A DNA stretch of 64,000 nucleotides from Escherichia coli (GTDB taxonomy: Bacteria > Pseudomonadota > Gammaproteobacteria > Enterobacterales > Enterobacteriaceae), in NCBI RefSeq assembly GCF_003018115.1, contig NZ_CP027457.1, one strand, 5' to 3'. The position numbers were made by a program, and so were the translations under genes. Shown here in pieces: positions 1 to 27,313 of this stretch. The notes under the pieces were generated by a model. That model searched no databases, was not told the DNA's origin, and worked only from the letters and a program-made list of their open reading frames with translations. The first letter of the stretch is position 1, and the number at the start of each line of letters is the position of its first letter.

Positions 1-201
1 ATGACCGATGCGCTGTGGTTGACCACACCGTGGACTGATATCTCTGGCGAAGTGGGGCAGATGGATAAGACCACAGTCAAATTTTCGATTCCAATGGATA
101 ACGCCATTTCGCTGCGTACGGTAGATGATAACGGCTGGTTTGGCGAAGTCAGCGCTTCAGGAGAAATTCATGTTCAGGCGACGTGGCGTAACATTAACTA
201 A
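1..201 (+). CDS. ecpD: EcpD fimbrial tip adhesin, C-terminal end (partial, runs off window start)
   Basis: ORF reads into window from upstream; position directly before ecpE in ecp operon order; identity from synteny rather than sequence recognition. Confidence 0.6.
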
Positions 202-880: not shown

Positions 881-1192
881 GACTTATCCATCGGTCGAGG
901 GAAGAATTCCACTTCAGAGCCCCAAAAATCGTTTAAATGATGTGGAAGCGATCGTCAATATCACCTGTAACGATGGGCTTTCTCATATGCACACCATAGT
1001 GTTCAGGAGACACGGAAAGGTATCAGGCAGCCTGCTAACGAGTGGTTTATTCACGAATTAGTACGTAAAATCGGTAACGGCTGGAAATCATTCAATACTC
1101 ACACTATCGAAAGTTCCCCAGCCAACCGCGGTACGTTCTTACATACGATGTACCGCTGTTCTCTTTACGATTTATAGCTGTACTGGTGAATT

Positions 1193-1522
1193 ATGAGCAA
1201 TCTGAATCCATGCATGACGTGTGGTGCCTGTTGTGCATTTTTCCGCGTCTCTTTTTACTGGGCCGAAGCCGACGATGCTGGTGGTACCATTCCCGCCAGG
1301 CTCACTGAACAAATATCCCCTTTTCACCGATGCATGAGCGGAACTAATCAGAAAAACCCCCGATGTATTGCCCTTGCAGGAACCCCGGGCAAAAATGCCT
1401 GCTGCACGATATATAAAAATCGATCGTCCACATGCAGAGAATTCGCCATGTCTGGTGAGAACGGAGTCGTCAATGAGGCTTGCAATCGTGCAAGGGCTAA
1501 ATACGGGCTGACACCGTTATAA
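1193..1522 (+). CDS. ykgJ: YkgJ family cysteine-cluster protein
   Basis: 109 aa, Cys-rich N-terminus [17 protein letters not shown]; synteny between ecpE and yagU. Confidence 0.8.
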
Positions 1523-1545
1523 ACATACAATAATTAATTGCACTG

Positions 1546-1578
1546 CCCCGCCTACTGTAATAGCGGGGCTTCGTTTTC
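1546..1578 (+). terminator. rho-independent terminator after ykgJ
   Basis: GC stem ccccgc...gcgggg followed by cttcgttttc. Confidence 0.5.
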
Positions 1579-1726
1579 AGGGACAACAAAACCCGAAACT
1601 TATTGTATTTGCCTGCAACAATGCCTCTCTTCTGTAGCGTTCTTCGGATCTACATCATCCTGAAGTAGCACGATATACTCACTGACTATCTGAATCAGAA
1701 TATAAAAAGCAATGTTTTTAACCTAT

Positions 1727-1755
1727 AAAAATGGCGCTGTATTTGCGCCATTTTT
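1727..1755. terminator. bidirectional hairpin between ykgJ and yagU (convergent)
   Basis: Perfect inverted repeat aaaaatggcgc-tgtattt-gcgccattttt flanked by A/T runs on both sides. Confidence 0.55.
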
Positions 1756-1768
1756 ATCATTCAATGCA

Positions 1769-2383
1769 TTATCTGTTTGAGCCTAAAGGGATCTCAGGGT
1801 CTGGCTCATGAGTAATTCTGTTTCGTAAATCTCTGCGAATAATTTCAATGGACCAGAACCAGACTAAATGTCCAAAAATTTCAGAAACATTCTCATACCA
1901 CGGGAGATCAAACAGAGGTGGTGTCAGTCCCATGAGAGGGAATGAAATCATATGAACAAAAAGTTGGGCTAAAGCACCTGCCAGTAAGCCCTGCCAGAGT
2001 TTAATTTTTGGAAATACTTCAGCGACCACACAATAACCGACAGCAAACACTATCGAAAAGATAATGTGCGTAACACCAACCCAGTTAAAGACATGCCCGG
2101 CAAAGGTATAAACAGCCGCATTGGGATCTGTCAGCCCCAGCCAGTCTCGAAGAAAAATATACGGAGGATTGAGAAAATTACGCGAGCAATCAATTTGCCC
2201 AGCAGCCCTGATTAATGATTCCGGGCCACACGCTGCATTAAACATATCCACCGGGCTACGTGGCGGCAATGGAACTTCAGCCCCCCACTTCACAAATGCG
2301 GAAACAACGCCAGCAATCAGCCCAATGAATGCAGCAAGACCATAACGTCTGCGGTTCGGTGGAGTTTGTTCAAATATATTCAT
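1769..2383 (-). CDS. yagU: YagU inner membrane protein (DUF1440)
   Basis: 204 aa hydrophobic protein; synteny next to paoA. Confidence 0.85.
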
Positions 2384-2800
2384 ATCTACCCTGCTTGTAC
2401 CATTATGTTATACACCTCTTCAGGAGTATTCATAAAACAAGGAAAATGTAAAGAACTGTATTGTTTTGTATAACAAGATGGTTGTCTAATCACCAAAGAA
2501 TATAAGCACCATCATTTCTCCCTATTTTTATATTAGAAGTGACATAGATTTGCAGGGTGATGCAGAGCTGACAATCACAGGTTTCCTTATCGGTTTTTGC
2601 ATCGTACAACTAAAGCAATAAAACAGCTCCCATCATCATCAACATCCCGGCGAACATGAATTTATTAGCCGGGCTCATAGCTGCATTCGCGTTTTAAGAA
2701 TAATCCTCCTGCTGTCGCCGACTATGCTTAACGTTTAAAAAAGCATCAGCACTCTCGCAACGCACTCTTATTTTCCCCTTTAGAATACCGGAGGCCTGGT

Positions 2801-3490
2801 ATGAGCAACCAAGGCGAATACCCCGAAGATAATCGGGTTGGGAAGCACGAGCCGCACGATTTTAGTTTGACCCGTCGCGATCTGATTAAAGTGAGCGCCG
2901 CAACGGCGGCGACCGCCGTGGTTTATCCTCATTCTACGCTTGCGGCAAGCGTTCCGGCAGCTACACCCGCGCCTGAGATAATGCCCCTGACACTTAAGGT
3001 GAACGGCAAAACCGAGCAGCTTGAAGTGGATACCCGAACCACGCTACTGGACGCTTTGCGTGAAAATCTGCATTTGATCGGTACCAAGAAAGGTTGCGAT
3101 CACGGACAGTGCGGAGCCTGTACCGTGCTGGTCAATGGTCGCAGGCTTAATGCCTGCCTGACGCTTGCAGTCATGCATCAGGGGGCCGAGATCACCACCA
3201 TTGAAGGCCTGGGTTCACCAGATAATCTTCACCCCATGCAGGCGGCCTTTATCAAGCATGATGGCTTCCAGTGCGGCTACTGTACCTCCGGGCAAATTTG
3301 CTCATCAGTAGCGGTGCTAAAAGAGATTCAGGACGGCATTCCCAGTCACGTCACGGTCGATTTGGTTTCCCCTCCAGAAACAACTGCCGATGAGATCCGT
3401 GAACGTATGAGCGGCAACATCTGTCGCTGTGGTGCATACGCTAACATCCTTGCCGCCATTGAAGACGCTGCGGGGGAGATAAAATCATGA
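2801..3490 (+). CDS. paoA: Aldehyde oxidoreductase 2Fe-2S subunit PaoA, Tat-exported
   Basis: 229 aa; twin-arginine motif TRRDLIK; Cys motifs CDHGQCGAC and CGYC typical of 2Fe-2S ferredoxin subunit. Confidence 0.9.
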
Positions 3491-4443
3491 AGGCGTTTAC
3501 CTATGAACGAGTGAACACCCCGGCCGAGGCGGCACTTAGCGCTCAGCGCGTACCCGGCGCAAAATTTATCGCGGGCGGGACCAATCTGCTGGACCTGATG
3601 AAGCTGGAAATTGAAACGCCCACCCACCTTATCGATGTGAACGGGCTCGGGCTCGATAAGATTGAAGTGACCGACGCGGGTGGGCTGCGCATCGGCGCAC
3701 TGGTACGGAACACCGACCTGGCGGCTCACGAGCGCGTGCGTCGTGATTACGCGGTACTCTCCCGCGCCCTGCTCGCTGGCGCGTCTGGTCAGTTACGCAA
3801 TCAGGCAACCACCGCAGGTAATCTGCTCCAGCGCACGCGCTGCCCCTATTTTTACGACACCAATCAGCCCTGCAATAAGCGCCTGCCCGGGAGCGGCTGC
3901 GCGGCGCTTGAAGGCTTTAGCCGTCAGCACGCGGTGGTAGGCGTAAGCGAAGCCTGCATTGCCACCCATCCGAGCGATATGGCGGTCGCAATGCGGTTGC
4001 TGGATGCGGTGGTGGAAACCATCACGCCGGAGGGAAAGACTCGCAGTATCACACTGGCTGATTTTTATCACCCACCGGGGAAAACGCCGCACATTGAAAC
4101 CGCCCTGCTTCCCGGTGAGCTTATCGTTGCGGTGACGTTACCTCCGCCGCTCGGCGGAAAACATATTTACCGTAAGGTGCGCGATCGCGCCTCCTACGCC
4201 TTTGCCCTGGTATCGGTCGCGGCGATTATTCAGCCTGACGGCAGCGGGCGCGTCGCGCTGGGCGGAGTAGCACATAAGCCCTGGCGCATTGAGGCTGCGG
4301 ATGCTCAGCTATCCCAGGGGGCACAGGCCGTATATGACACGCTGTTCGCCAGCGCCCATCCCACCGCTGAAAACACCTTTAAACTCCTGTTGGCGAAGCG
4401 AACGCTTGCCTCCGTACTGGCTGAAGCGAGGGCACAGGCATGA
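3487..4443 (+). CDS. paoB: Aldehyde oxidoreductase FAD-binding subunit PaoB
   Basis: 318 aa; start overlaps paoA stop (ATGA); FAD-binding molybdopterin dehydrogenase-like. Confidence 0.9.
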
Positions 4444-6638
4444 AATTTGATAAACCCGCAGGGGAAAACCCGATCGATCAGCTGAAGGTTGTCGGTCGTC
4501 CCCATGACCGCATCGACGGACCGCTGAAAACTACCGGCACGGCACGCTACGCCTACGAATGGCATGAAGAGGCCCCCAACGCCGCCTATGGCTATATCGT
4601 CGGTTCCGCCATTGCCAAAGGACGCCTCACCGCCCTTGATACGGACGCCGCGCAAAAAGCGCCGGGCGTACTGGCTGTCATTACCGCCAGTAACGCCGGG
4701 GCACTCGGCAAAGGCGACAAAAACACCGCCAGGCTGTTAGGCGGCCCCACTATTGAGCACTATCATCAGGCCATTGCGCTGGTAGTGGCCGAGACCTTCG
4801 AACAGGCGCGAGCGGCGGCCTCGCTGGTGCAGGCACACTATCGCCGTAATAAAGGAGCTTACTCCCTGGCGGACGAAAAACAGGCCGTCAATCAGCCGCC
4901 GGAAGACACGCCCGACAAAAACGTCGGTGACTTTGACGGGGCTTTCACCTCCGCTGCGGTGAAGATTGATGCTACCTACACGACCCCGGACCAGAGCCAT
5001 ATGGCGATGGAGCCGCATGCCTCGATGGCCGTCTGGGATGGAAATAAGCTTACTCTCTGGACCTCAAATCAGATGATTGACTGGTGCCGCACCGATCTGG
5101 CAAAAACGCTAAAAGTGCCCGTGGAGAATGTGCGTATTATCTCCCCGTATATCGGCGGAGGGTTTGGCGGCAAGCTGTTCCTGAGAAGCGATGCGCTGCT
5201 GGCAGCCCTCGCCGCCCGAGCGGTGAAACGTCCGGTTAAAGTGATGCTCCCCCGCCCCACTATTCCCAATAACACCACGCACCGCCCCGCCACCCTTCAG
5301 CACTTGCGTATCGGTGCCGACCAGAGCGGGAAAATCACCGCTATCTCACATGAAAGCTGGTCCGGAAACCTGCCCGGCGGCACGCCGGAAACGGCGGTAC
5401 AGCAAAGCGAATTACTCTACGCCGGGGCAAACCGTCATACCGGCCTGCGGCTCGCCACGCTTGATTTGCCGGAAGGGAACGCCATGCGTGCGCCCGGCGA
5501 AGCCCCCGGTCTGATGGCGCTCGAAATCGCGATCGACGAACTGGCGGAAAAAGCGGGCATCGATCCCGTCGAGTTTCGCATCCTGAATGACACTCAGGTT
5601 GACCCCGCCGACCCGACGCGCCGCTTCTCTCGCCGTCAGCTTATTGAGTGCTTGCGCACCGGAGCGGATAAATTTGGCTGGAAGCAGCGCAACGCCACAC
5701 CCGGACAGGTACGCGACGGAGAGTGGCTAGTCGGCCACGGCGTCGCGGCGGGCTTTCGCAATAATCTGCTGGAAAAATCGGGGGCTCGGGTTCACCTCGA
5801 ACCAAACGGCACCGTTACCGTGGAAACGGACATGACCGACATTGGCACCGGCAGCTACACCATTCTGGCCCAGACGGCAGCGGAAATGCTTGGCGTACCG
5901 CTGGAGCAGGTTGCGGTTCACCTCGGCGATTCCAGTTTCCCGGTTTCTGCGGGTTCTGGTGGACAATGGGGCGCGAATACCTCCACCTCCGGCGTTTACG
6001 CCGCCTGTGTGAAGCTTCGCGAAATGATTGCCTCGGCAGTCGGGTTTGATCCTGAGCAGTCGCAGTTTGCCGACGGCAAGATTACCAACGGTACCCGAAG
6101 CGCCATGCTACATGAGGCCACCGCAGGCGGCAGACTGACAGCGGAAGAGAGCATTGAATTCGGAACACTGAGCAAGGAGTACCAGCAGTCGACCTTTGCC
6201 GGGCATTTTGTGGAGGTCGGCGTGCATAGCGCGACGGGAGAAGTTCGGGTCCGGCGTATGCTCGCTGTGTGTGCTGCAGGACGCATCCTGAATCCGAAAA
6301 CTGCACGCAGCCAGGTCATTGGCGCAATGACTATGGGCATGGGCGCGGCACTGATGGAGGAGCTGGCGGTGGATGACCGTTTGGGCTACTTCGTTAATCA
6401 CGATATGGTGGGGTATGAGGTGCCGGTCCATGCGGATATCCCAAAACAGGAGGTGATTTTCCTGGATGATACCGACCCCATATCCTCCCCGATGAAGGCC
6501 AAAGGTGTCGGTGAGCTGGGCCTGTGCGGCGTGAGCGCTGCTATCGCCAACGCGGTGTATAACGCCACCGGTATTCGGGTACGCGATTATCCCATCACTC
6601 TGGATAAGCTGCTCGATAAGCTGCCGGATGTGGTTTAA
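4440..6638 (+). CDS. paoC: Aldehyde oxidoreductase molybdopterin-binding large subunit PaoC
   Basis: 732 aa; overlaps paoB stop; xanthine dehydrogenase family large subunit. Confidence 0.9.
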
Positions 6639-6647
6639 GGAGGAACA

Positions 6648-7604
6648 ATGTCATACCCGCTTTTTGATAAAGACGAACACTGGCATAAGCCAGAGCAGGC
6701 GTTTCTCACCGATGACCACCGTACCATTCTGCGCTTCGCCGTAGAGGCGCTAATGTCCGGTAAAGGAGCGGTGCTGGTGACGCTGGTGGAGATACGCGGC
6801 GGTGCGGCGCGCCCGCTCGGGGCGCAGATGGTGGTGCGCGAAGATGGTCGTTACTGCGGTTTTGTCTCTGGCGGCTGCGTGGAGGCCGCTGCCGCTTTTG
6901 AAGCGCTGGAGATGATGGGCTCAGGCCGCGATCGCGAAATTCGCTATGGCGAAGGTTCGCCGTGGTTTGACATCGTTCTGCCCTGCGGCGGTGGGATCAC
7001 GCTGACGCTCCATAAACTACGCTCGGCACAGCCTCTGCTCGCCGTGCTGAACCGCCTGGAACAGAGAAAACCGGCGGGGCTGCGCTACGATCCGCAAGCA
7101 CAATCGTTGGTGTGCCTGCCCACGCAAACCCGAACGGGCTGGAATCTCAATGGCTTTGAGGTGGGGTTCAGGCCATGCGTCAGGCTGATGATTTACGGAC
7201 GTTCTCTTGAGGCGCAGGCAACCGCGAGTCTTGCAGCAGCCACAGGCTATGACAGCCATATCTTCGATCTTTTTCCGGCCTCAGCCAGCGCTCAGATCGA
7301 TACCGACACGGCGGTCATTTTGCTGTGCCATGATCTCAACCGGGAGCTGCCAGTGTTGCAGGCCGCGCGAGAAGCAAAACCCTTTTATCTCGGCGCATTG
7401 GGCAGCTATCGAACCCACACGTTACGTCTGCAAAAGCTCCACGAGCGGGGATGGTCCAGGGAGGAGACAGCGCAAATCCGGGCACCCGTCGGGATATTCC
7501 CCAAAGCCCGGGATGCGCATACTCTGGCACTCTCCGTGCTGGCAGAAGTCGCCTCTGTACGTCTCCATCAGGAGGAGGATTCATGCCTGCCCCCGTCGTG
7601 CTGA
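6648..7604 (+). CDS. paoD: Molybdenum cofactor insertion chaperone PaoD (XdhC family)
   Basis: 318 aa; follows paoC by 9 nt with AGGAGG RBS. Confidence 0.85.
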   Translation: MSYPLFDKDEHWHKPEQAFLTDDHRTILRFAVEALMSGKGAVLVTLVEIRGGAARPLGAQMVVREDGRYCGFVSGGCVEAAAAFEALEMMGSGRDREIRYGEGSPWFDIVLPCGGGITLTLHKLRSAQPLLAVLNRLEQRKPAGLRYDPQAQSLVCLPTQTRTGWNLNGFEVGFRPCVRLMIYGRSLEAQATASLAAATGYDSHIFDLFPASASAQIDTDTAVILLCHDLNRELPVLQAAREAKPFYLGALGSYRTHTLRLQKLHERGWSREETAQIRAPVGIFPKARDAHTLALSVLAEVASVRLHQEEDSCLPPSC

Positions 7605-7663
7605 TCCTTGCGGCCGGGCGTGGAAAGCGCTTTCTCACCTCCGGGGGAAATACCATAAATTAA
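7583..7663 (+). pseudogene. 26-codon N-terminal stub of a MobA/MocA-like nucleotidyltransferase
   Basis: GAGGAGGATTC-ATG then MPAPVVLILAAGRGKRF (LAAGxGxRF motif), stop after 26 codons; overlaps paoD end. Confidence 0.4.
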
Positions 7664-7782
7664 GAGAAAAATCTGCAGTAGCCGTTTTAGAAAATCACCT
7701 AAATCATTTAAAAGAGCGACCTACCCATAGTGGGTGCTCATCGCCTTGTGTAACTTATTCAGCAACGCGCGCCCTCGCCGGA

Positions 7783-8976
7783 CTAAAGCGCACCGGCCTT
7801 CTGGCGTGCGGTAACAAAGGTCAGTACGCCCGCGCAAAGGAGCAGCACACTACTCATGGCAAACGTACTCTGCCAGCCAAGGCGGTCAAACACGATGCCT
7901 CCTGCCGTTGATCCAAGGGCGATTGAGAGCTGAATCACCGCGACCATGAGCCCGCCTCCGGCTTCGGCGTTGTCAGGCAACGTACGCGCAATCCATGTCC
8001 ACCATCCGGTTGGCGCGGCGGTGGCCAGCATGCCCCAGAGTCCTAACAGCAGCGAGACCGTCCAGACGTGATGCCCGGTAAGCATCAGACCGATGGCAAT
8101 GACGGCCATCAGTCCGGGTATGGCCATCAGCGTGGGGTAGAATTTTCTGTTGAGAAATGTCGAAACAACCAGCGTGCCAATAAAACCGGCCACGCCGATA
8201 ATCAGCAAAATCAACGACAAGCCTAAGGAATTAACCCGTGTCACCGACTCCAGAAACGGGCGCACATAGGTGAATAGCGCAAACTGCCCCATGAAAAACA
8301 GGCCACAAGCTATCATGCCGACCACAACCATGCGGCGGCTAAATAAGCGGAATACCGCGCCACATGACGTGTGGCTTTTATTCGCATCCATGCTGGGCAG
8401 ACTAATGCACTGCCAGATAAAGGCGACAACCGCCATGGGCACCAGGCACAAGAAAGCGCCTCGCCATCCGACCGTAGCCCCCAGATAGCTTCCCAGCGGC
8501 GCGGCCACGACCGTCGCCAGCGCATTACCGGCGTTGAAAATCGCCAGCGCACGCGTGACCTGATGCTGCGGCACCAGACGAATCGCCGTTGCCGCTGACA
8601 TCGACCAGAATCCGCCAATGGCCACACCAATCATCGCACGACCGACCATATACATCAGATAACTGGTAGCCAGCGCAATAATAAGCCCCGATACGGCCAT
8701 CAGAACCGTCATCCCCAGCAGCAGGAACTTACGATTCATCTTTCCAGCTAGCGTTGAAAGCGTCAGGCTGGTCAGAACAGCCAGCGCGCCGGAGATAGCA
8801 ATCCCCTGCCCTGCAAGCCCCTCCGTCACGCCTAAATCGCGGGTAATCGGCGTGAGCAGGCTGACGGGCATAAATTCAGAAGCAATCAGCACAAACACGC
8901 ACAGGGTCATAGCAAAAATACCGCCCCAGTATGCGTGCTGATGATGAGGTGATGGTGTTTGGCTTAGTGTCGACAT
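7783..8976 (-). CDS. MFS family transporter (12 TM)
   Basis: 397 aa highly hydrophobic, MFS-like helices and loop motifs. Confidence 0.75.
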   Translation of the reverse strand: MSTLSQTPSPHHQHAYWGGIFAMTLCVFVLIASEFMPVSLLTPITRDLGVTEGLAGQGIAISGALAVLTSLTLSTLAGKMNRKFLLLGMTVLMAVSGLIIALATSYLMYMVGRAMIGVAIGGFWSMSAATAIRLVPQHQVTRALAIFNAGNALATVVAAPLGSYLGATVGWRGAFLCLVPMAVVAFIWQCISLPSMDANKSHTSCGAVFRLFSRRMVVVGMIACGLFFMGQFALFTYVRPFLESVTRVNSLGLSLILLIIGVAGFIGTLVVSTFLNRKFYPTLMAIPGLMAVIAIGLMLTGHHVWTVSLLLGLWGMLATAAPTGWWTWIARTLPDNAEAGGGLMVAVIQLSIALGSTAGGIVFDRLGWQSTFAMSSVLLLCAGVLTFVTARQKAGAL

Positions 8977-9051
8977 AGTGAAATTTCACAAAGATCAGGA
9001 TAAAAGCCACCTGCCATAGACCGGTGGCTTTGCATCAATTCAGGAGAGGTT

Positions 9052-10188
9052 TTATTTCAGTTTGGTCTGGAAAAATTGTTCGAACTTCGCGAAAGGTATT
9101 TTTCCGGCCACGTTATCGTACAGGTCCACGTGATTTGCCCCTGGTACCACCACCAACTCTTTGTCTTTACTGCCAACCGCCTTGTAAGCATCTTCAGCAA
9201 AATAGCGTGAATGCGCTTTCTCACCGGTCACAATCAGCGTCGGGATGGTGATTTCACTGGCGTATCTCAACAGCGGCATATTCATAAATGACAGCGGCAT
9301 CGTTGCCGTCCACGCCCCGGTAGAGTTAACGGAACGTTCGTGGAAGCCGCGCGGCATGCGATAGTAGTCAAAGAACTCTTTCAGTACCGGATGAGGATTT
9401 GCCGGCAGCGTTTCTGGCAGAATACGCTCGCCCGCACTGACCTTGCCGTTGCTATCGACATTAATATCATGACCACCGTGAGCGAACGTTCCGCTATGCG
9501 CATCCTTCCAGCGCTGTTCATTCAGATATTGCAGAACAGCACGACGGTCGGCGGTAGAATAACGGTCTTTGCCATCCCCCACACCATGACCCATCGCCCG
9601 GCTCATGTCATACATCACGCTGGTAGCTACCGCTTTAACGCGGGTATCCATCGCCACGTCGTTCAGCGCCATGCCGCCCCAGCCACAAATACCGAGCAGC
9701 CCGATACGGTTGCGGTCTACCTCTTTTTGCAGCCCTAAGAAATCCACCGCCGCGCTGAAATCTTCAGTGTTGATATCCGGTGAGGCGACGTTTCGCGGAT
9801 AGCCGCCGCTTTCCCCGGTGTAAGAAGGATCGAACGCCAGGGTAACAAACCCTCGTTCCGCCAGCGTCTGCGCATACAGGCCGCTGGATTGCTCTTTCAC
9901 CGCGCCAAATGGCCCACTGACCGCAATCGCCGCCAGCTTGCGATCGCCACGGTCTTTAGGCAGGTAAAGATCGCCCACTAAGGTGATGCCATATCGGTTC
10001 GGGAACGAGACTTTACGGTGATCGACTTTCTGGCTCTCGGCGAACGTTTTATCCCATTTATCTGTCATGGACACAGGGGCATTAGGATTGGTTGAATCAG
10101 CATAACTCATTGTCGTGACTCCACTTAATGATGCGAAAAGCAGCATGGTCGGCATCGCGGTTTTTAGCGTTCGGGTGAAGGCTTTCAT
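9052..10188 (-). CDS. Secreted alpha/beta hydrolase, Cys-nucleophile (dienelactone-hydrolase-like)
   Basis: Signal peptide MKAFTRTLKTAMPTMLLFASLSG; nucleophile elbow GICGWGG; start set at internal Met. Confidence 0.6.
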   Translation of the reverse strand: MKAFTRTLKTAMPTMLLFASLSGVTTMSYADSTNPNAPVSMTDKWDKTFAESQKVDHRKVSFPNRYGITLVGDLYLPKDRGDRKLAAIAVSGPFGAVKEQSSGLYAQTLAERGFVTLAFDPSYTGESGGYPRNVASPDINTEDFSAAVDFLGLQKEVDRNRIGLLGICGWGGMALNDVAMDTRVKAVATSVMYDMSRAMGHGVGDGKDRYSTADRRAVLQYLNEQRWKDAHSGTFAHGGHDINVDSNGKVSAGERILPETLPANPHPVLKEFFDYYRMPRGFHERSVNSTGAWTATMPLSFMNMPLLRYASEITIPTLIVTGEKAHSRYFAEDAYKAVGSKDKELVVVPGANHVDLYDNVAGKIPFAKFEQFFQTKLK

Positions 10189-10374
10189 AAAAATCCCCAT
10201 AAAAAACAACAGAGAGATACAGGTTTCCGACGGACAACGCTGCGGTGCTTTACTTTGATGGGGTCATTATAGTGAGCAGAATTAGTGCTGATTAGGGGGC
10301 GATTAATGCTAAGATTAATACCATATTGTTATAAATTAATGCGGAGATTGCCGGCATGAAGGGGGGATGTTTCA

Positions 10375-11259
10375 ATGGCGAAAAGGGAGAACTACAACGA
10401 GCTGTACCTGTTTATGCAGGTGGTGCGGGAAGGCAGCTTTACCGCAGCGGCTCAGCGGCTGGGTCTTGCTCAGTCAGGAGTCAGCCGTTCTGTTCGCGAG
10501 CTTGAAGAAAGGCTGGGTGTCCAGCTGCTAGTGCGCACCACGCGTAAACTGTCGCTGACACAAGCAGGCGAGCAGCTCTACCAGAAGACGGCATCTGGAT
10601 TTGAAATGTTAGATCTTGGGCTTGCCACACTGGCGCACTATCGAGAGACGCCCTCCGGCACGGTGCGTATCAATGCCAGCCAGCACGCGATTGATAAATG
10701 CCTGCTGCCAAAGCTGGCGGTATTTAAACAGCGATATCCTGATATCCGGCTTGAACTGATAAATGAGAGCCGGTTCGTCGATATCATCGAGGAAAGATTC
10801 GATGCAGGTGTCCGCCTGGGGCCTGAAGTCGGCCAGGGTATGGTCGCGGTACGCATCACGCCCGATATGGAGATGGCAATTGTGGGGACTCCGGAACATT
10901 TTCGTCGTTATGGTTTTCCGCAAACCCCGGCGGATTTAAAGGCGCATCCCTGTATCGCCTATCAGTTTGCCGACGGCAGCGTATACCAGTGGGAACTCAA
11001 TCAGGATGATAAAAAAATCACTCATCGCCCTGAAGGGCAATGGGCCCTATCCGACAGCTATATGGAAGCAGAAGCCGCCCGGCTGGGCCTCGGATTGGCC
11101 TATGTTCCTGTTGAACTGGTCGCGGATGATTTAGAACACGGTAACCTTATCAGGGTGTTGCAGCGTTACAGCCTGCGAATGGAGGGATTGTTTCTCTATT
11201 ACCCTCATCGCAACGTCTCCCCCGCTCTGCGGATGGTCATTGATACATTGAAAATCTGA
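10375..11259 (+). CDS. LysR-family transcriptional regulator
   Basis: 294 aa; N-terminal HTH FTAAAQRLGLAQSGVSRSVRELEERLG; divergent from hydrolase-MFS genes. Confidence 0.85.
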   Translation: MAKRENYNELYLFMQVVREGSFTAAAQRLGLAQSGVSRSVRELEERLGVQLLVRTTRKLSLTQAGEQLYQKTASGFEMLDLGLATLAHYRETPSGTVRINASQHAIDKCLLPKLAVFKQRYPDIRLELINESRFVDIIEERFDAGVRLGPEVGQGMVAVRITPDMEMAIVGTPEHFRRYGFPQTPADLKAHPCIAYQFADGSVYQWELNQDDKKITHRPEGQWALSDSYMEAEAARLGLGLAYVPVELVADDLEHGNLIRVLQRYSLRMEGLFLYYPHRNVSPALRMVIDTLKI

Positions 11260-11968
11260 ACGTTAACAACGACCGACTCTTCACTGTGCAATATTGTGTC
11301 AGGTAGTCACTCTGCGTTCAATTCCAGGGGCCGCTTTGAGCGAGAAAGAGCGGACTTATCTGTATAAGGGGACTATCCAGCAATGGAGATCACCCAAAAG
11401 AAAAAACTACCTGGCTCCCTCAACAACCTTCATCCGGGAATTTAGCCTCAATCAACATTTTTATATCTGTCAGGTTACTTCATTATGAAAACCGATCAAT
11501 ATCGTTGTTTTTGTAGTAATAATAGAATACGCGTATTTATTCCTCCATTTCTATTAATAACAGCCATAAACTGTTCACTTCACTGATATTTAAAATATGC
11601 ATCCTTTTCCTGCTTTTCAAGTTGTTCAGCGGCGTAAGAAAACGTATTAAATATGAATTCGACGATTTAACCATTTCTGTCTGATTGGTAATCATCTGTG
11701 ATTAATGCTGGTCTATTGATTACGCCAGCATTAACCGCTTAGGGATGTATTCTTCCTGATCATATACAGCCCTCGAAAAAGAGAGAAAATAAAACTGTGT
11801 CCAATATTACTCTACCACTCCAGACCGAAGCATCGGTAGAATTAGCAGAACGACTGGTACAGAAGGTGGGTATAGCGTCATTTGTCGGGCATTCCATTGC
11901 CATCATAATGATAATTTTGAATCAATAGACGTGCTTCTTGATCATGTCTTAAAATTATACCATGAGCC

Positions 11969-12199
11969 TTATGAAGCATCATTTTTACTGACTGGTGTTA
12001 ACTTTGCTATCATATAAACTCTGTTCTTAAAAAACGCGCCCAGAATTTTATATGATTTCCCTTGTTTTTCTGCCTGTAAAGAAATTTCTTTTTCAGTGCT
12101 GTCAATAGTTGAACCGACGGCAGTAATCGTTTTGGCGACGCTACTGAATGATAATAAAGACAGTGCAACCACAACAATTAAAGAACAGATAGTATTCAT
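11969..12199 (-). CDS. Small secreted protein, DUF1471 (BhsA/McbA/YdgH-like) candidate
   Basis: Signal peptide MNTICSLIVVVALSLLSFSSVA then ~55 aa mature domain; start at internal Met of ORF 11969..12247. Confidence 0.45.
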   Translation of the reverse strand: MNTICSLIVVVALSLLSFSSVAKTITAVGSTIDSTEKEISLQAEKQGKSYKILGAFFKNRVYMIAKLTPVSKNDAS

Positions 12200-12412
12200 G
12201 CTAATTCTCCTGACAATTAAGAGGATGAGTTTTATATATAAAGGCATTAAACATGAGTCATATTTACTTCCTGTGAAAATAATCTTTCTGTAATTAAACC
12301 TTCATCTCCTTCGGGGTGAGCAATACATAATGCATCTTGCTATGAAAAACACAGGGATATATAAATCTTCCTTCTGACCTATTTAATAAAACGTGAATGT
12401 AAAAGTTATTCT

Positions 12413-13135
12413 TCAGTTTGCAGATGCAGTGGGTCTGATGGTAATTTCGGTTGTATCAACGCTTTCGGGAGATTCAATAATATGCCTTACCGCACGGGCA
12501 ATATCCGCAGGTTGAAGTGCAACAGAACGGTAGGAGTCCATTGCCTTCATGGTTTCCACATGGGTAATGGTTGAAGCCAGTTCACTTTCGACAACGCCAG
12601 GATTTACGCAGGTCACACGGATTTTCGAGCTTTCCTGCCGTAAGCCATCAGAAATAGCCCGTACTGCAAATTTTGATGCACAATAGACTGCGCCTGTGGG
12701 CACAACAGAAAGGGCACCAATAGAACCAAGATTGATTATCTGACCGGAACCCTGTGCTTCCATCACCGGAAGTACAGCGCCAATTCCCCACAGTACACCT
12801 TTGATATTCACGTCAATAGTGAGCGCCCATTCATCTTGTTTTCCTGCTGCAAGCGGTGAAAGCGGCATAACGCCCGCATTATTGATAAGAACATCAACTC
12901 GCCCCCAGCTATCCAGCGCTGCTTGCACGAAATCGGCCATGGACTGTCGGTCTGTGACATCCAACTCCCGCGCTTTAGCAATTCCTCCTGCGCGGCAGAT
13001 TTCGGTTGCAATGGCTTCGATACGCTCAACTCTGCGTGCTCCCAGTAAAACCTTTGCACCTGTCGTTCCAAGCTCTCTGGCAATACCTTCCCCAATACCA
13101 CTTGATGCGCCGGTAATTAATATGACCTTATCCAT
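12413..13135 (-). CDS. Short-chain dehydrogenase/reductase (SDR)
   Basis: TGASSGIG NAD(P)-binding motif, YCASK catalytic motif; start at MDKVILITG. Confidence 0.85.
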   Translation of the reverse strand: MDKVILITGASSGIGEGIARELGTTGAKVLLGARRVERIEAIATEICRAGGIAKARELDVTDRQSMADFVQAALDSWGRVDVLINNAGVMPLSPLAAGKQDEWALTIDVNIKGVLWGIGAVLPVMEAQGSGQIINLGSIGALSVVPTGAVYCASKFAVRAISDGLRQESSKIRVTCVNPGVVESELASTITHVETMKAMDSYRSVALQPADIARAVRHIIESPESVDTTEITIRPTASAN

Positions 13136-13233
13136 TACGTTCTCCTTCAAATGTGTTCGGAGAGAGAATAGAACTTTATGATTGGTTCCAGTATCCTGCT
13201 TTCAATGTACTCAGTGGTTAGCGGCATTAAACA

Positions 13234-14133
13234 ATGAAAATCGATCTTAATCTTTTACCCATTTTTATCGCGGTAGCAGAAGAGAGTAATTTTAGTAAAG
13301 CCGCCGCACGACTGGGCGTTACCCGTTCAGCGGTCAGTCAGGGAATAAGACGTCTTGAAGATGCATTCGGGACAATGCTTGTAATGCGGACCACGCGCTC
13401 AGTTAATTTGACGGAAGCGGGAGAACGGCTGCATAAATCGTTGTCATTACCTTTATCCGGTATTGAGGCAGCGTTCGAAGAGATGGTCTCTGACCATGTA
13501 CCACGTGGACATCTCAGAATCGCGGTGACGTCGATAGCAGAAGAATTTCTTTCAGGTCCGCTAATCGCTTCGTTTGCAGCTGCCAATCCAGCCGTTACGC
13601 TTGATATTGTTGTCACGGATGAGGAATTCGATATCGTTGCCGCAGGTTACGATGCTGGCGTAAGGCTCGGAGAGGTCATTGAAAAAGACATGATTGCTGT
13701 TCCCCTTACCGGCAGGCAGCGTGAAATGGTCGTTGCCTCTCCCTCCTATCTCGCAGCCAACAGCACACCTGTTCATCCGCGTGAACTTGTGAATCATAAG
13801 TGTATCGGCTGGCGTCAGTCCCCGGAGGTTGCGCCTTATCGCTGGCCATTTGAAGAAAACGGGAGAGCTTTCGACCTTGCGATTGAACCGCAGATTACGA
13901 CTAATGATCTGCGTCTGATGTTGCGGCTGGCTCTTGCCGGTGGAGGAATAACAATTGCCACTCAGGAAACTTTCAGGCCGTATATTGAAAGCGGTAAGCT
14001 TGTATCTCTGCTTGATGACTTTCTTCCACAATTTCCGGGCTTCTATCTGTATTTCCCACAGCGTCGCAATATTGCACCAAAGCTCCGCGCCCTGATTGAC
14101 CACGTCAAGGAATGGCGGCAGCAATTGGCTTAA
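13234..14133 (+). CDS. LysR-family transcriptional regulator (possibly the intact counterpart of K-12 yagP fragment)
   Basis: 299 aa; HTH FSKAAARLGVTRSAVSQGIRRLE; divergent from SDR. Confidence 0.8.
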   Translation: MKIDLNLLPIFIAVAEESNFSKAAARLGVTRSAVSQGIRRLEDAFGTMLVMRTTRSVNLTEAGERLHKSLSLPLSGIEAAFEEMVSDHVPRGHLRIAVTSIAEEFLSGPLIASFAAANPAVTLDIVVTDEEFDIVAAGYDAGVRLGEVIEKDMIAVPLTGRQREMVVASPSYLAANSTPVHPRELVNHKCIGWRQSPEVAPYRWPFEENGRAFDLAIEPQITTNDLRLMLRLALAGGGITIATQETFRPYIESGKLVSLLDDFLPQFPGFYLYFPQRRNIAPKLRALIDHVKEWRQQLA

Positions 14134-14259
14134 ATGTCTGCACCTACATTGCCTGATGTCAGAACAGTATTTTGATTAATTGCCAGGGTTACAATGGCAC
14201 AAATACGGCACAGGAGGAAACGTGGTGTATTTAAATATGGGGTAACTACTTGATTTAAA

Positions 14260-14335
14260 TGGTGCCGATAATAGGAGTCGAACCTACGACCTTCGCATTA
14301 CGAATGCGCTGCTCTACCAACTGAGCTATATCGGC
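14260..14335 (-). tRNA. thrW: tRNA-Thr (anticodon CGU)
   Basis: Reverse complement reads GCCGATATAGCTCAGTTGGTAGAGCAGCGCATTCGTAATGCG...TTCGACTCCTATTATCGGCACCA; cloverleaf with CGT anticodon and CCA end. Confidence 0.9.
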
Positions 14336-20713: not shown

Positions 20714-22171
20714 GTGTCTGAACTGTCTCAATTATCTCCACAGCCGCTGTGGGATATTTTTGCCAAAATCTGTTCTATTCCTCACCCGTCCTATCATGAA
20801 GAGCAACTCGCTGAATACATTGTTGGTTGGGCAAAAGAGAAAGGTTTCCATGTCGAACGCGATCAGGTAGGTAATATCCTGATTCGTAAACCTGCTACCG
20901 CAGGTATGGAAAATCGTAAACCGGTCGTCTTGCAGGCCCACCTCGATATGGTGCCGCAGAAAAATAACGACACTGTGCATGACTTCACGAAAGATCCTAT
21001 CCAGCCTTATATTGATGGCGAATGGGTTAAAGCGCGCGGCACCACGCTGGGTGCGGATAACGGCATTGGTATGGCCTCTGCGCTGGCGGTTCTGGCTGAC
21101 GAAAACGTGATTCACGGCCCGCTGGAAGTGCTGCTGACCATGACCGAAGAAGCCGGTATGGACGGTGCGTTCGGCTTACAGAGCAACTGGTTGCAGGCTG
21201 ATATTCTGATTAACACCGACTCCGAAGAAGAAGGTGAAATCTACATGGGTTGCGCGGGGGGTATCGACTTCACCTCCAACCTGCATTTAGATCGTGAAGA
21301 GGTTCCAGCTGGTTTTGAAACCTTCAAGTTAACCTTAAAAGGTCTGAAAGGCGGTCACTCCGGCGGTGAAATCCACGTTGGCCTCGGTAATGCCAACAAA
21401 CTGCTGGTGCGCTTCTTGGCGGGTCATGCGGAAGAACTGGATCTGCGCCTTATCGATTTCAACGGCGGTACACTGCGTAACGCCATCCCGCGTGAAGCCT
21501 TTGCGACCATTGCTGTCGCAGCTGATAAAGTCGACGCACTGAAATCTCTGGTGAATACCTATCAGGACATTCTGAAAAACGAGCTGGCAGAAAAAGAGAA
21601 AAATCTGGCCTTGTTGCTGGACTCTGTAGCGAACGATAAAGCTGCCCTGATTGCGAAATCTCGCGATACCTTTATTCGTCTGCTGAACGCCACTCCGAAC
21701 GGTGTGATCCGCAATTCCGACGTGGCAAAAGGTGTGGTTGAAACCTCCCTGAACGTCGGTGTGGTGACCATGACTGACAATAACGTAGAAATTCACTGCC
21801 TGATCCGTTCACTGATCGACAGCGGTAAAGACTACGTGGTGAGCATGCTGGATTCGCTGGGTAAACTAGCTGGCGCGAAAACCGAAGCGAAAGGCGCATA
21901 TCCTGGCTGGCAGCCGGACGCTAATTCTCCGGTGATGCATCTGGTACGTGAAACCTATCAGCGTCTGTTCAACAAAACACCGAACATCCAGATTATCCAC
22001 GCGGGCCTGGAATGTGGTCTGTTCAAAAAACCGTATCCGGAAATGGACATGGTTTCTATCGGGCCAACTATCACCGGTCCACACTCTCCGGATGAGCAAG
22101 TTCACATCGAAAGCGTAGGTCATTACTGGACGCTGCTGACTGAACTGCTGAAAGAAATTCCGGCGAAGTAA
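20714..22171 (+). CDS. pepD: Cytosol nonspecific dipeptidase (aminoacyl-histidine dipeptidase)
   Basis: 485 aa, GTG start; MSELSQLSPQPLWDIFAKICSIPHPSYHEEQ. Confidence 0.95.
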   Translation: MSELSQLSPQPLWDIFAKICSIPHPSYHEEQLAEYIVGWAKEKGFHVERDQVGNILIRKPATAGMENRKPVVLQAHLDMVPQKNNDTVHDFTKDPIQPYIDGEWVKARGTTLGADNGIGMASALAVLADENVIHGPLEVLLTMTEEAGMDGAFGLQSNWLQADILINTDSEEEGEIYMGCAGGIDFTSNLHLDREEVPAGFETFKLTLKGLKGGHSGGEIHVGLGNANKLLVRFLAGHAEELDLRLIDFNGGTLRNAIPREAFATIAVAADKVDALKSLVNTYQDILKNELAEKEKNLALLLDSVANDKAALIAKSRDTFIRLLNATPNGVIRNSDVAKGVVETSLNVGVVTMTDNNVEIHCLIRSLIDSGKDYVVSMLDSLGKLAGAKTEAKGAYPGWQPDANSPVMHLVRETYQRLFNKTPNIQIIHAGLECGLFKKPYPEMDMVSIGPTITGPHSPDEQVHIESVGHYWTLLTELLKEIPAK

Positions 22172-22227
22172 TTATTTGATTTGCTGCCGGATGGCGTTTA
22201 ATCGCCTTCCGGCAGTTTCATCCTTCA

Positions 22228-22785
22228 TTATCCTTCGATAAAAGCCATCCCTGTAAATGTCCGTCTCGGGTTGCCACGTTCAATCTGGTGATGGAACATT
22301 CGCCGCTGCGATTTCAGCACCGCGCTATTTTCCTGTTGCTGCTGCTCCAGCCTCCAGGCAATCAGCAATCGTGCCAGCCGCTTGTTAGCATGCTGACTAC
22401 GCTCTGACTGAACCTTCACGCTAATACCGGATGCCAAATGCGTGGCGCGTACCGCCGAGTCGGTTTTATTGACATGTTGACCGCCCGGCCCCGACGAACG
22501 CAACGTCTCATAACGGATTGCATCCGATTGTTCCTGCTCATCAGCGGTAAAACGCCCAATGCCCAGAAACCAGTTTTTGCGCCCATGATGAGGCCGATAC
22601 GGACTCGGACAAATCCACTGAATAGTGCCACACCAGCTTTCGCTTAATGCCCATGCGTTATCGCCATCCAGAGAAACCAGCGCCGAACGCAGCGTGTCAG
22701 AGTAGCAGCCCGTTTCTGTTTCCAGCACCGTTACCGCGACGTCTTGTCGGGTAAAAACGACCAACAGAGAAGAACGCTGCGCCAA
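22228..22785 (-). CDS. prfH: Peptide chain release factor homolog PrfH (probably 5'-truncated as in K-12)
   Basis: Contains SGPGGQHVN (GGQ motif); 185-aa ORF overlapping ykfJ remnant. Confidence 0.75.
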
Positions 22786-22963
22786 TCGGGTAGCCGCGTC
22801 CGGGGTGTAAATCTGGCATCCCCACTACGCGCTGCATGTTGGGTAAATTTGCCGTGGTGTGTAATTGTTGGATCGCTAAACTCTCGATCCACAGGTCATC
22901 AGATGCGATGGTAAATACCGCATCGGATAAGGGAAGAATATATTTGCCCATGTACCATTCCAT
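22697..22963 (-). pseudogene. ykfJ: RtcB-like RNA ligase N-terminal fragment (ykfJ)
   Basis: [16 protein letters not shown] resembles the RtcB N-terminal motif; only ~70 aa of homology before reading out of frame into prfH. Confidence 0.6.
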
Positions 22964-23268
22964 TTATACTCGTCATACTTCAAGTTGCATTTACTGCGAC
23001 TGCGTTCGTTCACCCCAGTCACTTACTTATGTAAGCTCCTGGCGATTCACTCGCTTGTCGCCTTCCTGCAACTCGAATTATTTAGAGTATATAAATATAA
23101 AAATCAGGAAATGGCAGACGAATCCAGGGCAAGAAAAAAAGAATTAATCCTGGAAAGGTCTGCAAAGAGTCATTGATAAAGGATTTGTCATGATTTACCT
23201 CCTTGCAGTTTGTGGAATAAGAAAACGCGCACATACCAGGCGGGCGTTATTTTCATTGCAAGCTGGAT

Positions 23269-23721
23269 TTAATGTTGCGGTTTATATCGCATATAAAAAT
23301 TAGTAAACCACGCTCCCCGGCATTCAACGCGCTGCTGCTTAACTGTCTGAAAACCATAACGTTCAAAAAAGGGTTTTGCGGTTATGCTGGCATCTACCGT
23401 AAGTTCGGATTCAGACTTAATCAATGGTTTTAACAAGGCGCTGGCAACCCCGCGGCGGGTGTATTCAGGGTCAACAAATAACATATCGATATAACGTTCA
23501 ATGCGGGAAATAAAACCAACCGGTTGTGCATTAATGACGGCAACCCGCACTTGTGATTTCGCGAGTTTCTCCTTCCAGCGAGATTCGTCAATCTGCGCCC
23601 AGGCGGCAATTTGTTGTGGAGAATAGTGCTGACTGGAGGTCATCGTAACCGCTCTAATGAAAATAGCGCATAGTTGCTGAAAATCGCCAGGCTGATAGTT
23701 TCTTATTTGTATGTTATTCAT
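23269..23721 (-). CDS. yafP: GNAT family acetyltransferase YafP
   Basis: 150 aa [25 protein letters not shown]; ATG overlaps dinB stop. Confidence 0.9.
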
Positions 23722-24773
23722 AATCCCAGCACCAGTTGTCTTTCCATTTGCGGATCCAGCAACGTCACATGCAGCCCCACCAGTCGCACACCGCGCCCGC
23801 CGCGGCGTTCATCCCAGGTTTTACGCGCGGTGGCGATTAAGTCAGCTTTATTCAGCCGCGGCCAGACGTGCTCCTGGGTGGTTTGCTGAAAATCGTCGAA
23901 CTTTAATTTCACCCCCTGGCGAGCAATCAGTAAATCAGGTTTTACCTTTGCCAGACGGCGTTCAAGTTCCGGATACAGCCGCTCGATAATCGCTTCACAT
24001 TCAGACCAGTGATGAATATCTTCCGCCATCGTGCGTTCCACGCCGACGGATTTTCGCAACCGTTCGCTGTTAACATCGCGTTCGTCAATCCCCTGACTAC
24101 GCTCCCACAAAATGCGGCCAAATTTGCCAAAGCGTTTAAGCAGCATCACCAGATCACACTTTTGTACATCACCGCAGGTCCGCAGCCCCATCGCTTCCAG
24201 TTTTGCCGCCGAGACTTTGCCGACGCCGGGGATTTTTGCCAGTGGTAAGGTTTGTAAAAATGCCGGAACTTCTGCCGGCGTAATCACAAACTGGCCGTTG
24301 GGTTTATTCATGTCGGAGGCGATTTTGGCGAGAAACTTTACTGGTGCCACGCCCGCAGACGCCGTCAGTTGCAGCTCGTTGAAAATCGTCTGGCGGATTT
24401 CCTGGGCAATGAGGGTCGCAGAACCGTGGCAATGGACGCTGTCGGTGACATCGAGATAAGCCTCATCCAGTGACAACGGCTCAATGCGAGAGGTGTAGCG
24501 CGAGAAGATTTCACGGATATGATTTGAGGCTTCTTTGTAGGCGTCAAAGCGCCCCGGAAGCAAGGTGAGATGTGGGCATAATTTGAGCGCCATCCCTGTC
24601 GGCATAGCGCTGCGTACGCCAAATTTACGCGCGGGATAATTAGCGGTGCTGATCACCCCCCGACGTTCGCGGCTGCCGCCAATAGCAATAGGGATATCGC
24701 GCAGGGCGGGATTGTCGCGCATCTCCACTGCGGCGAAAAAGCAGTCCATATCCACATGAATGATTTTACGCAT
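23718..24773 (-). CDS. dinB: DNA polymerase IV
   Basis: 351 aa [33 protein letters not shown] (Y-family polymerase). Confidence 0.95.
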
Positions 24774-24843: not shown

Positions 24844-25575
24844 TTAGCGCGTTCGCTGCGAAAGCACCTGCTGCTTATCCAGCTTTTGCACCAGCGGCTG
24901 CACCACTTTATCCCCATGCTGACCAAAGTATTGATACAGCGTATCGGACGCACTTTTGGTCAGCACCATAATCTCAATACGCCGATTGCCCGCGCTTTGC
25001 GGATTTTTGGCATCCAGCAGCATCTGGTCAGCCATTGCGCTTACCTGCATCACTTTATCTTCCGGCATTCCGGCCTCTTCCAGCACCCGACGAGCCGAAA
25101 GCGCGCGGTCACCCGAAAGGTTCCAGTTGTTGTAGATATTGTTTTTGTAAGCCATCGCATCGGTATGCCCGGTAATAATAATTTTGTTATCGAGCGAGTC
25201 GAACACTGGCGCGAGCTCCACCAGCAAAGTTTTAAAGAACGGCATAATCTGCGCGCTGCCGCGTTCGAACATATTGCGATTCTGGTCGTCTTTAATCAGC
25301 ACGCGTAATCCCTGCGGGACAATCTCCATCTCCAGATTCGCTTCCATATGCGCATCACGGGCAATGGTGTTGATACTGGTTGCCAGCTCGCCAAGCTCGG
25401 TGGCGGATTTCTTCTTCAGCAGCGCCGTTTTCTCATTCACATCACGCGCTTTTTTCTCCGTCTCTTCCGGCACCGCCACGGTGGCAGGTTTTGGCGGATG
25501 AGACGGGCTGATTTTATTTAACGGCGACAGCCCACCACCGTTAAAAATCGACTGCCCGTGCAGCGCGGCGATAAT
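24844..25575 (-). pseudogene. lafU: lafU (mbhA) MotB-like flagellar motor protein, 5'-truncated; Flag-2 remnant
   Basis: C-terminal OmpA-like domain (NWNLSGDRALSARRVLEEAGM... RRIEIMV) present, N-terminal TM segment absent; upstream part of ORF is antisense of lfhA fragment. Confidence 0.75.
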
Positions 25576-25599
25576 GCTTTCACGCTCGGATTTACTGAC

Positions 25600-27313
25600 G
25601 CTGTTGACAATCAACTTTATCGTCGTCACCAAAGGGGCCGAGCGTATTTCCGAGGTTTCTGCCCGCTTTACCCTGGACGCGATGCCCGGCAAACAGATGG
25701 CGATTGACGCCGACCTTAACGCCGGGTTGATCAACCAGGCGCAGGCGCAAACCCGGCGTAAAGATGTCGCCAGCGAGGCCGATTTCTACGGCGCGATGGA
25801 CGGGGCGTCAAAGTTTGTGCGCGGGGATGCCATCGCCGGGATGATGATTCTGGCAATCAACCTGATCGGCGGCGTCTGTATCGGGATCTTCAAATACAAC
25901 CTGAGCGCCGACGCCGCCTTCCAGCAATATGTGCTGATGACCATCGGCGATGGGCTGGTGGCGCAGATCCCTTCCCTGCTGCTCTCCACCGCGGCGGCGA
26001 TTATCGTCACCCGCGTCAGCGACAACGGCGATATCGCCCATGACGTGCGCCACCAGCTGCTGGCAAGCCCGTCGGTGCTCTACACCGCTACCGGGATCAT
26101 GTTCGTGCTGGCGGTGGTACCGGGGATGCCGCACCTGCCGTTTTTGCTGTTCAGCGCCCTGCTTGGTTTTACCGGCTGGCGGATGAGCAAACGCCCGCAG
26201 GCGGCAGAGGCGGAAGAGAAAAGCCTCGAAACGCTAACCCGCACCATCACCGAAACCAGCGAGCAACAGGTCAGTTGGGAAACCATTCCGCTGATCGAGC
26301 CCATCAGCTTAAGCCTCGGCTACAAACTGGTGGCGCTGGTGGACAAAGCGCAGGGCAACCCGCTCACCCAGCGGATTCGCGGCGTGCGGCAGGTGATTTC
26401 TGACGGCAACGGCGTGCTGCTGCCGGAGATCCGCATTCGGGAAAACTTCCGCCTCAAGCCGAGCCAGTACGCCATTTTCATCAACGGCATTAAGGCCGAT
26501 GAAGCGGATATTCCGGCGGATAAACTGATGGCCCTGCCCTCCAGCGAAACCTACGGCGAGATAGACGGCGTGCTGGGGAACGACCCGGCGTACGGGTTGC
26601 CGGTGACCTGGATCCAGCCTGCGCAGAAAGCGAAGGCGCTGAATATGGGGTATCAGGTGATCGACAGCGCCAGCGTGATTGCCACCCATGTGAATAAGAT
26701 TGTACGCAGCTATATTCCTGATTTGTTTAACTATGACGACATCACACAGTTGCATAACCGTTTGTCGTCGATGGCACCGCGCCTGGCAGAAGACTTAAGC
26801 GCGGCGCTGAATTACAGCCAGTTGCTGAAAGTGTACCGGGCGTTACTGACCGAAGGCGTTTCCCTGCGCGATATCGTCACCATCGCCACCGTGCTGGTCG
26901 CCAGTAGCGCGGTGACCAAAGATCATATTCTGCTGGCAGCCGATGTGCGCCTGGCGCTGCGGCGCAGCATTACCCATTCGTTTGTTCGCAAGCAGGAGCT
27001 GACGGTGTATACGCTGAATAATGAGCTGGAAAATCTGCTGACCAACGTGGTGAATCAGGCGCAACAGGGCGGGAAAGTGATGCTCGACAGCGTGCCGGTC
27101 GCCCCGAATATGCTCAACCAGTTCCAGAACACGATGCCGCAGGTAAAAGAGCAGATGAAAGCGGCGGGGAAAGACCCGGTGCTGCTGGTGCCGCCGCAGC
27201 TTCGCCCTTTGCTGGCGCGCTATGCGAGATTGTTTGCGCCGGGACTGCATGTGCTGTCGTATAATGAAGTGCCGGACGAGCTGGAGTTGAAGATTATGGG
27301 GGCGTTGATGTAA
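25600..27313 (+). pseudogene. lfhA: lfhA (fhiA) FlhA-like flagellar export protein, 5'-truncated; Flag-2 remnant
   Basis: Homology starts mid-protein (NFIVVTKGAERISEVSARFTLDAMPGKQMAIDADLNAG); lacks N-terminal TM domain. Confidence 0.75.

Follow-up and report, generated by a model that had tools for sequence, protein, structure and literature searches.

In the stretch of E. coli DNA analyzed here (64,000 nucleotides, hereafter the window), the minus-strand region flanked by pepD on one side (plus strand, 20714-22171) and yafP on the other (minus strand, 23269-23721) is almost certainly what is left of an rtcB2-prfH operon for ribosome repair, now inactive, carrying the same allele as the ykfJ/prfH pseudogenes of K-12 and produced by one 1,027-bp deletion. 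A decayed RtcB-PrfH module had been proposed at this place in an earlier note written from the DNA letters without database searches, and both the family matches and the alignment to intact loci agree with that proposal.

We observe two overlapping minus-strand ORFs in the ORF listing, of 88 and 185 aa (Table 1), both of which were covered by Pfam and NCBIfam scans. The 88-aa ORF matches the RtcB-family model NF007153 over profile positions 1 to 69 of 379 (E = 5.8e-30; 104.5 bits versus a cut-off of 407) and the PrfH-linked RtcB model TIGR03073 (release_rtcB) over positions 1 to 58 of 356 (E = 1.2e-28; 100.1 bits versus a cut-off of 271.8), so that its similarity to RtcB is significant. The match to Pfam RtcB (PF01139) covers positions 1 to 33 of 426 and, with 23 bits, stays below the gathering cut-off of 27 bits; neither the full RtcB2 length of approximately 379 aa nor the curated cut-off is reached by this stub. 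Its sequence is 95.7% identical to residues 1 to 69 of intact RtcB2 (tblastn), with 68 readable RtcB codons, 66 of them unambiguous, while the last base of codon 67 and codon 68 lie inside the microhomology at the deletion junction; the estimate of about 70 remaining codons was thus accurate. The true RtcB2 start is the ATG at 22951, the ATG of the ORF at 22963 lying four codons further upstream, and the only motif kept is the N-terminal PDLHPG.

The 185-aa ORF matches TIGR03072 (release_prfH) over positions 31 to 200 of 200 (E = 3.7e-82), scoring 274.7 bits where the cut-off is 166.65, which shows the retained part of the predicted product to be homologous and orthologous to PrfH. It also matches Pfam RF-1 (E = 2.2e-24) and, over positions 14 to 40, the ArfB model NF006718 (E = 1.5e-08; 34.4 bits, below the cut-off of 100). 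The retained prfH was aligned with intact PrfH and with chain 8 of PDB 7sa4. The GGQ motif described in the earlier note is in place (Table 1). The fragments of the two genes are adjacent and co-oriented on the same strand at the pepD-yafP locus, in the order rtcB2 then prfH, as in intact loci. No further copy of RtcB2 or PrfH was found by tblastn in the 64-kb window, and the plus-strand ORFs across the region are short (43 to 69 aa) and run antisense inside pseudogene DNA.

Table 1. Coordinates of the rtcB2-prfH remnant and adjoining features in the window
Feature	Position	Strand	Description
RtcB2 (ykfJ) stub	22752..22951	-	nt 1-200 of the 1,140-nt rtcB2; codons 1-66 plus 2 nt
Deletion junction	22748..22751	-	4-bp microhomology CCCG; 1,027 bp missing, equal to 2153-3179 of the intact 02E060 locus (L002)
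prfH remnant	22228..22751	-	nt 92-615 of the 615-nt gene; codons 32-204 plus stop
GGQ codons (GGC GGT CAA), peptidyl-tRNA hydrolase domain	22477..22485	-	PrfH residues 120-122, from direct sequence reading
88-aa mechanical "ykfJ" ORF	22697..22963	-	4 upstream, 68 RtcB2 and 16 out-of-frame codons, then stop
185-aa mechanical prfH-frame ORF	22228..22785	-	12 wrong-frame codons of the RtcB stub, then PrfH 32-204
169-bp GGQ-containing segment	22394..22562	-	kept in the window; removed elsewhere by a second deletion
ERIC-type imperfect palindromic repeat	22969..23092	-	former 5' leader/promoter region of the operon; a neighbor, not part of a gene

The deletion was delimited within an alignment set of 10 intact and 11 deletion-type loci, with strain 02E060 as the reference intact locus, where prfH (204 aa) and the RtcB-family ligase (379 aa) have overlapping stop and start codons. 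Window positions 22100 to 22751 correspond to positions 1501 to 2152 of that locus, and the window from 22752 onward corresponds to the reference from 3180 onward, which leaves 1,027 bp absent by blastn and by base-by-base comparison. Read on the gene strand, intact rtcB2 runs ...TTT TAY CCG GCA... and intact prfH ...GCT GCC CGA CAA..., while the window reads ...TTT TAC CCG ACA AGA...; because TAC is the form seen in three of the four intact alleles that were aligned first, both breakpoints fall in the CCCG microhomology. The deletion joins rtcB2 nt 200 to prfH nt 92 out of frame. The missing length of 1,027 bp is not divisible by three, and the RtcB frame therefore runs for 16 out-of-frame codons into prfH-derived DNA before it meets a stop, in keeping with the out-of-frame reading noted earlier, and the prfH frame upstream of the junction consists of 12 meaningless codons. 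Alignment to an intact locus therefore defines a single deletion that hits both genes. The earlier note had considered the ligase half deleted and prfH probably non-functional or orphaned; the loss of the ligase stands, as does the probable loss of function, but prfH is not merely orphaned, being itself truncated, with codons 1 to 31, the ATG, and the ribosome-binding site gone.

With RtcB2 residues 69 to 379, the deletion took all recognizable catalytic motifs of the ligase, and a full-length rtcB is not recoverable, as had been stated, since the DNA is physically absent. The motifs NDIGCG (residues 73 to 78), GGGNHF (133 to 138), HSGSRG (168 to 173), and HGAGR (294 to 298) of intact RtcB2 all lie past residue 68. 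In established RtcB enzymology, these motifs hold the metal ligands (Cys/His) and the guanylylated nucleophile, which is the His of HGAGR, and the catalytic core is in this sense missing from the stub. All four are conserved with respect to solved RtcB structures (alignment to PDB 2epg). The same event took PrfH residues 1 to 31, the prfH ATG, and the GGAGG ribosome-binding site upstream of it, inside the end of rtcB2; a prfH start of its own, coupled to the rtcB2 stop by an ATGA overlap with GGAGG upstream, is present in three intact loci (L002, L008, and L010) and lies inside the deleted segment in the case of the window. A complete PrfH of approximately 204 aa, including the N-terminal part that belongs to the rRNA-recognition domain (residues 2 to 98), is thus not encoded, codons 1 to 31 being deleted. 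In the cryo-EM structure of PrfH bound to the damaged ribosome, one wall of the pocket for the 3'-phosphate end of cleaved A1493 is made up of G10 to P12 and the main chain of residue 9, which also touches C1914 (PMC9304027).

The course of events can be put as follows. By the published mechanism, PrfH of an intact operon recognizes 70S ribosomes cut by colicin E3-type toxins and releases the nascent peptide, and RtcB2 religates the 16S rRNA once the 30S subunit is free. In the window, a single deletion between two CCCG tetranucleotides truncated both genes at once, with the loss of the catalytic RtcB2 motifs, of part of the PrfH pocket for damaged rRNA, and of the prfH start with its coupled ribosome-binding site. 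From the retained sequence, we infer that neither product would be able to perform the function of the module and that the strain would receive no protection from this locus against colicin E3-type ribotoxins.

With respect to its distribution, a megablast search with positions 22100 to 23300 against 5,426 complete E. coli genomes returned two size classes, one of approximately 1.2 kb, as here, and one of approximately 2.15 kb with full-length genes. A 100-bp query centered on the junction was matched without interruption in 2,689 of the 5,426 genomes and the deleted segment in 2,675, so that the two classes together account for approximately 99% of genomes and the species is split almost evenly. 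The identical 1,027-bp gap is present in all 11 deletion-type loci sampled (this window, F9792, K-12, BL21(DE3), O157:H7 493/89, HS30-1, MB31, APEC E123, GTEN_97, THO-008, and Br_167). A few plasmid records were matched as well (6 places with the deleted segment, 17 with the query across the junction), indicating that the module or its remnant is occasionally plasmid-borne.

The alleles private to each class differ in their ratio of nonsynonymous to synonymous changes (Fisher, P = 0.006). Those private to deletion-type copies are 13 nonsynonymous and 6 synonymous, compatible with the neutral expectation of 75% (P = 0.60), and include radical changes such as W91L, P79L, S116P, and Y47C, while those private to intact copies are 18 nonsynonymous and 41 synonymous (P = 9e-13 against neutrality). 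Pairwise pN/pS is 0.13 among deletion-type prfH remnants and 0.08 among intact genes. A reading of the value of 0.13 as constraint was rejected once the changes had been polarized into private and shared classes; because the private deletion-type changes look neutral, we ascribe the low pairwise value to polymorphism inherited from functional alleles or imported from them by recombination, an attribution drawn from 21 alleles. Furthermore, a second, frame-breaking deletion of 169 bp takes the GGQ in 4 of the 11 deletion-type loci (L006, L007, L020, and L021), at the equivalent of window positions 22394 to 22562. The 169-bp segment has no match in 671 of the 5,426 genomes, and we take roughly 640 to 670 of them, approximately a quarter of the deletion-type genomes, as lacking it. 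Judged from these sequence comparisons, the leftover DNA is probably drifting neutrally, and the neutral private changes and the second deletion indicate that the remnant is still decaying.

If only the ligase were gone, a complete but orphaned prfH might, even with no partner to carry out the repair, still free peptides from damaged ribosomes. In favor of this, GGQ and 173 of 204 residues are kept, and the TIGR03072 score is well above its cut-off; against it, the profile match begins at position 31, with codons 1 to 31, ATG, and GGAGG all within the missing 1,027 bp, and residues A9 to P12, which are needed for the recognition of A1493P, are among those deleted. A full-length prfH frame was not found in the window, nor was an alternative start supported by a Shine-Dalgarno sequence, and an orphaned but complete prfH, refuted by the alignment, is given next to no credence. 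Only marginally more credible, and still highly improbable, is a truncated PrfH of 166 to 185 aa with an intact GGQ domain, made from an internal or non-canonical start and serving another role, for example as an ArfB-like codon-independent peptidyl-tRNA hydrolase. The frame is open from 22785 to 22228, and such a role would explain the open ORF in many genomes; the weak match to the ArfB model over the GGQ and the low pairwise pN/pS among remnants also speak for it, and a reviewer of the 2006 paper remarked that expression had never been checked (PMC1586002). The candidate starts in the prfH frame (TTG at 22785, TTG at 22764, and GTG at 22728) nevertheless lack any Shine-Dalgarno match of 4 nt or more, and no match of at least 4 nt to AGGAGGT occurs within 20 nt upstream of any candidate for the prfH remnant or the stub. 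A crude scan of both strands of positions 22100 to 23350 for the sigma-70 consensus turned up no promoter, and three weak terminator-like hairpins in this interval are not meaningfully above shuffle expectation. An Rfam search of positions 21500 to 24000 at permissive E-values gave a sub-threshold V_AS5 match, which is the ERIC-type repeat, and two chance-level matches, with no sign of an RNA gene, and a literature search on "ykfJ" found no study of the expression or function of the remnant. A residual role is further contradicted by the neutral-like, in part radical, private changes and by the outright deletion of the GGQ region in approximately a quarter of deletion-type genomes. The fragment would, in addition, be devoid of a central beta-strand of its domain, as the K-12 PrfH product would be of that of domain 2 (Baranov et al. 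2006, PMC1586002), and knock-outs of the remnant in BW25113 left colicin E3 sensitivity unchanged (IJMS 2022, PMC9223846).

Two further readings concern how the deletion came to be so common rather than what it did. The shared junction could reflect recurrent independent deletions at a CCCG hotspot instead of one ancestral event, since there is microhomology at both breakpoints, the allele occurs in lineages as unlike as K-12, BL21, and O157:H7, and the 3' part of prfH shows diverse haplotypes among deletion-type copies. However, 4 bp is too short to direct repeated identical deletions of 1,027 bp, and the exact junction is found in all 11 sampled alleles and in 2,689 genomes, with no near-miss variants among those sampled. 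Synonymous diversity of the RtcB stub is, moreover, low in deletion-type copies (pS = 0.022, versus 0.117 in intact copies), as would be expected of one origin close to the junction and recombination at a greater distance, and we regard recurrent deletion as very unlikely. In the prfH part of deletion-type copies, pS is high (0.088), with variants in common with intact alleles. The low diversity near the junction together with the high, shared variation in prfH points to a single origin followed by recombination: the deletion allele most likely arose once, and it appears to have reached its present share of about half of sequenced E. coli partly by recombination onto different haplotypes. The roughly 50:50 split could also be a balanced polymorphism and not the outcome of drift, with the junction moved between lineages by recombination and the deletion repeatedly favored because the module is costly where colicin E3-type toxins are absent. 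The present evidence gives this reading no specific support for selection, and we consider it unlikely.

Regarding the neighborhood of the locus, the ERIC-type repeat of approximately 125 nt at 22969 to 23092 lies 17 nt upstream of the start of the RtcB2 stub and has a predicted fold of -53.4 kcal/mol (z = -9). Its core fits the ERIC consensus with 2 mismatches, where none would be expected by chance. The repeat is full-length, partial, or absent depending on the strain, independently of the rtcB2-prfH deletion. In the window, dinB (23718-24773, minus strand) directly overlaps yafP; the toxin-antitoxin pair yafN-yafO, which stands between dinB and yafP in K-12, BL21, and NC101, is absent here as well as in F9792, 02E060, and E2348/69. 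Positions 24844 to 27313 hold a lafU-like ORF (minus strand) and a 579-aa FlhA-like ORF (plus strand), the latter annotated in F9792 as an FlhA-like gene without its N-terminus, and the pair is presumably the scar known to have been left by the Flag-2 lateral flagellar cluster. Upstream of the locus, pepD is an intact 485-aa ORF in the window and is annotated as frameshifted in the near-identical F9792, a discrepancy that may be genuine or stem from an assembly error. A tRNA-Thr(CGT) gene lies at 14260 to 14335, and the window beyond it (1 to 14241) is not collinear with F9792; in place of the integrase and lambdoid prophage genes that F9792 has there, the window encodes a molybdopterin oxidoreductase, an MFS transporter, and a LysR regulator. 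An apparently complete type VI secretion cluster (TssC, TssF, ClpV-type ATPase, VasJ), with VgrG and a 1,501-aa Rhs protein, occupies positions 38668 to 61284; F9792 retains no more than truncated remnants at this position, together with an ISEc1 element.

The function of the intact operon has been described in detail. PrfH acts in peptide release only on 70S ribosomes that have been cleaved between A1493 and G1494, after which RtcB2 repairs the 30S subunit by religating the 16S rRNA, and both are presumed inactive in K-12 owing to the deletion (Tian et al. 2022, PMC9304027); in the published mechanism, the cut between A1493 and G1494 is the work of colicin E3-type toxins (PMC9304027). The intact operon of ATCC 25922 guards against colicin E3 (IJMS 2022, PMC9223846). 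Protection from 16S rRNA cleavage by colicin E3 or CdiA-CT(ECL) is documented in published work on other strains, in which the intact operon is protective and the K-12-type remnant is not. For K-12 MG1655, W3110, and both O157:H7 reference strains, a deletion of approximately 1,000 nt was reported that takes in the C-terminal portion encoded by the upstream gene as well as the N-terminal portion of RFH, with CFT073, 042, and UTI89 being intact at the locus (Baranov et al. 2006, PMC1586002). Among the loci aligned here, E2348/69 (L017) has an otherwise intact rtcB2-prfH with a premature stop at PrfH codon 194, annotated as 193 aa, which suggests that some "intact" loci may also be impaired. In three intact-type loci (L003, L014, and L015), pepD and prfH are separated by two extra genes, one for a metal-dependent hydrolase and one for a hypothetical protein, and the PrfH of these loci ends in ...AV, versus ...EG.

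The deletion was already described in 2006 and 2022, and the remnant is a known, non-functional, and ordinary one. Its relevance goes little beyond annotation, where the locus should be labeled as two pseudogenes from one deletion, and the strain is predicted to be without RtcB2-PrfH protection against colicin E3-type ribotoxins. What we add is modest: the exact breakpoints with their CCCG microhomology, the roughly half-and-half census of 5,426 genomes, the evidence for neutral drift, and the common second deletion that removes the GGQ.

In comparison with known systems, the closest is the pair ykfJ (b0235, 267 nt) and prfH (b0236, 501 nt) of K-12 MG1655, both annotated as pseudogenes, with the same position between pepD and yafP, the same breakpoints, the same 267-nt ORF, and the same prfH remnant. 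The window is approximately 98.9% identical to K-12-type loci, and its nearest match is F9792 (99.9%). Three changes in the window, R6L in the RtcB stub and, relative to other alleles, R46C and K164R in the prfH remnant, are absent from K-12 and shared, among the sampled strains, only with F9792. The intact RtcB2-PrfH operon (ATCC 25922, CFT073, and others; PDB 7SA4) is orthologous and occupies the same locus, and the retained parts of the window are 95 to 99% identical to it, with the sequence of the GGQ domain preserved. The difference is that the products of the intact operon are a 379-aa RtcB2 and a 204-aa PrfH, their genes overlapping in an ATGA stop/start, while the window is without RtcB2 69 to 379 and PrfH 1 to 31; the remnant is not expected to carry out the peptide release on colicin E3-damaged 70S ribosomes or the 16S rRNA religation published for the intact operon, and remnants of the K-12 type do not protect (PMC9223846). 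With canonical RtcB (RtcB1 of the rtcBA operon, PF01139), the stub has in common an N-terminal motif of the PDxHxGxG type, over only 33 of 426 profile positions, and RtcB2 is a subfamily separate from RtcB1 that acts on the damaged 30S subunit and not on tRNA (PMC9304027). ArfB (YaeJ) has the region of the GGQ motif in common with the prfH remnant, over 27 residues only and below the cut-off, but its C-terminal tail, which probes the empty mRNA channel, has no equivalent in the remnant.
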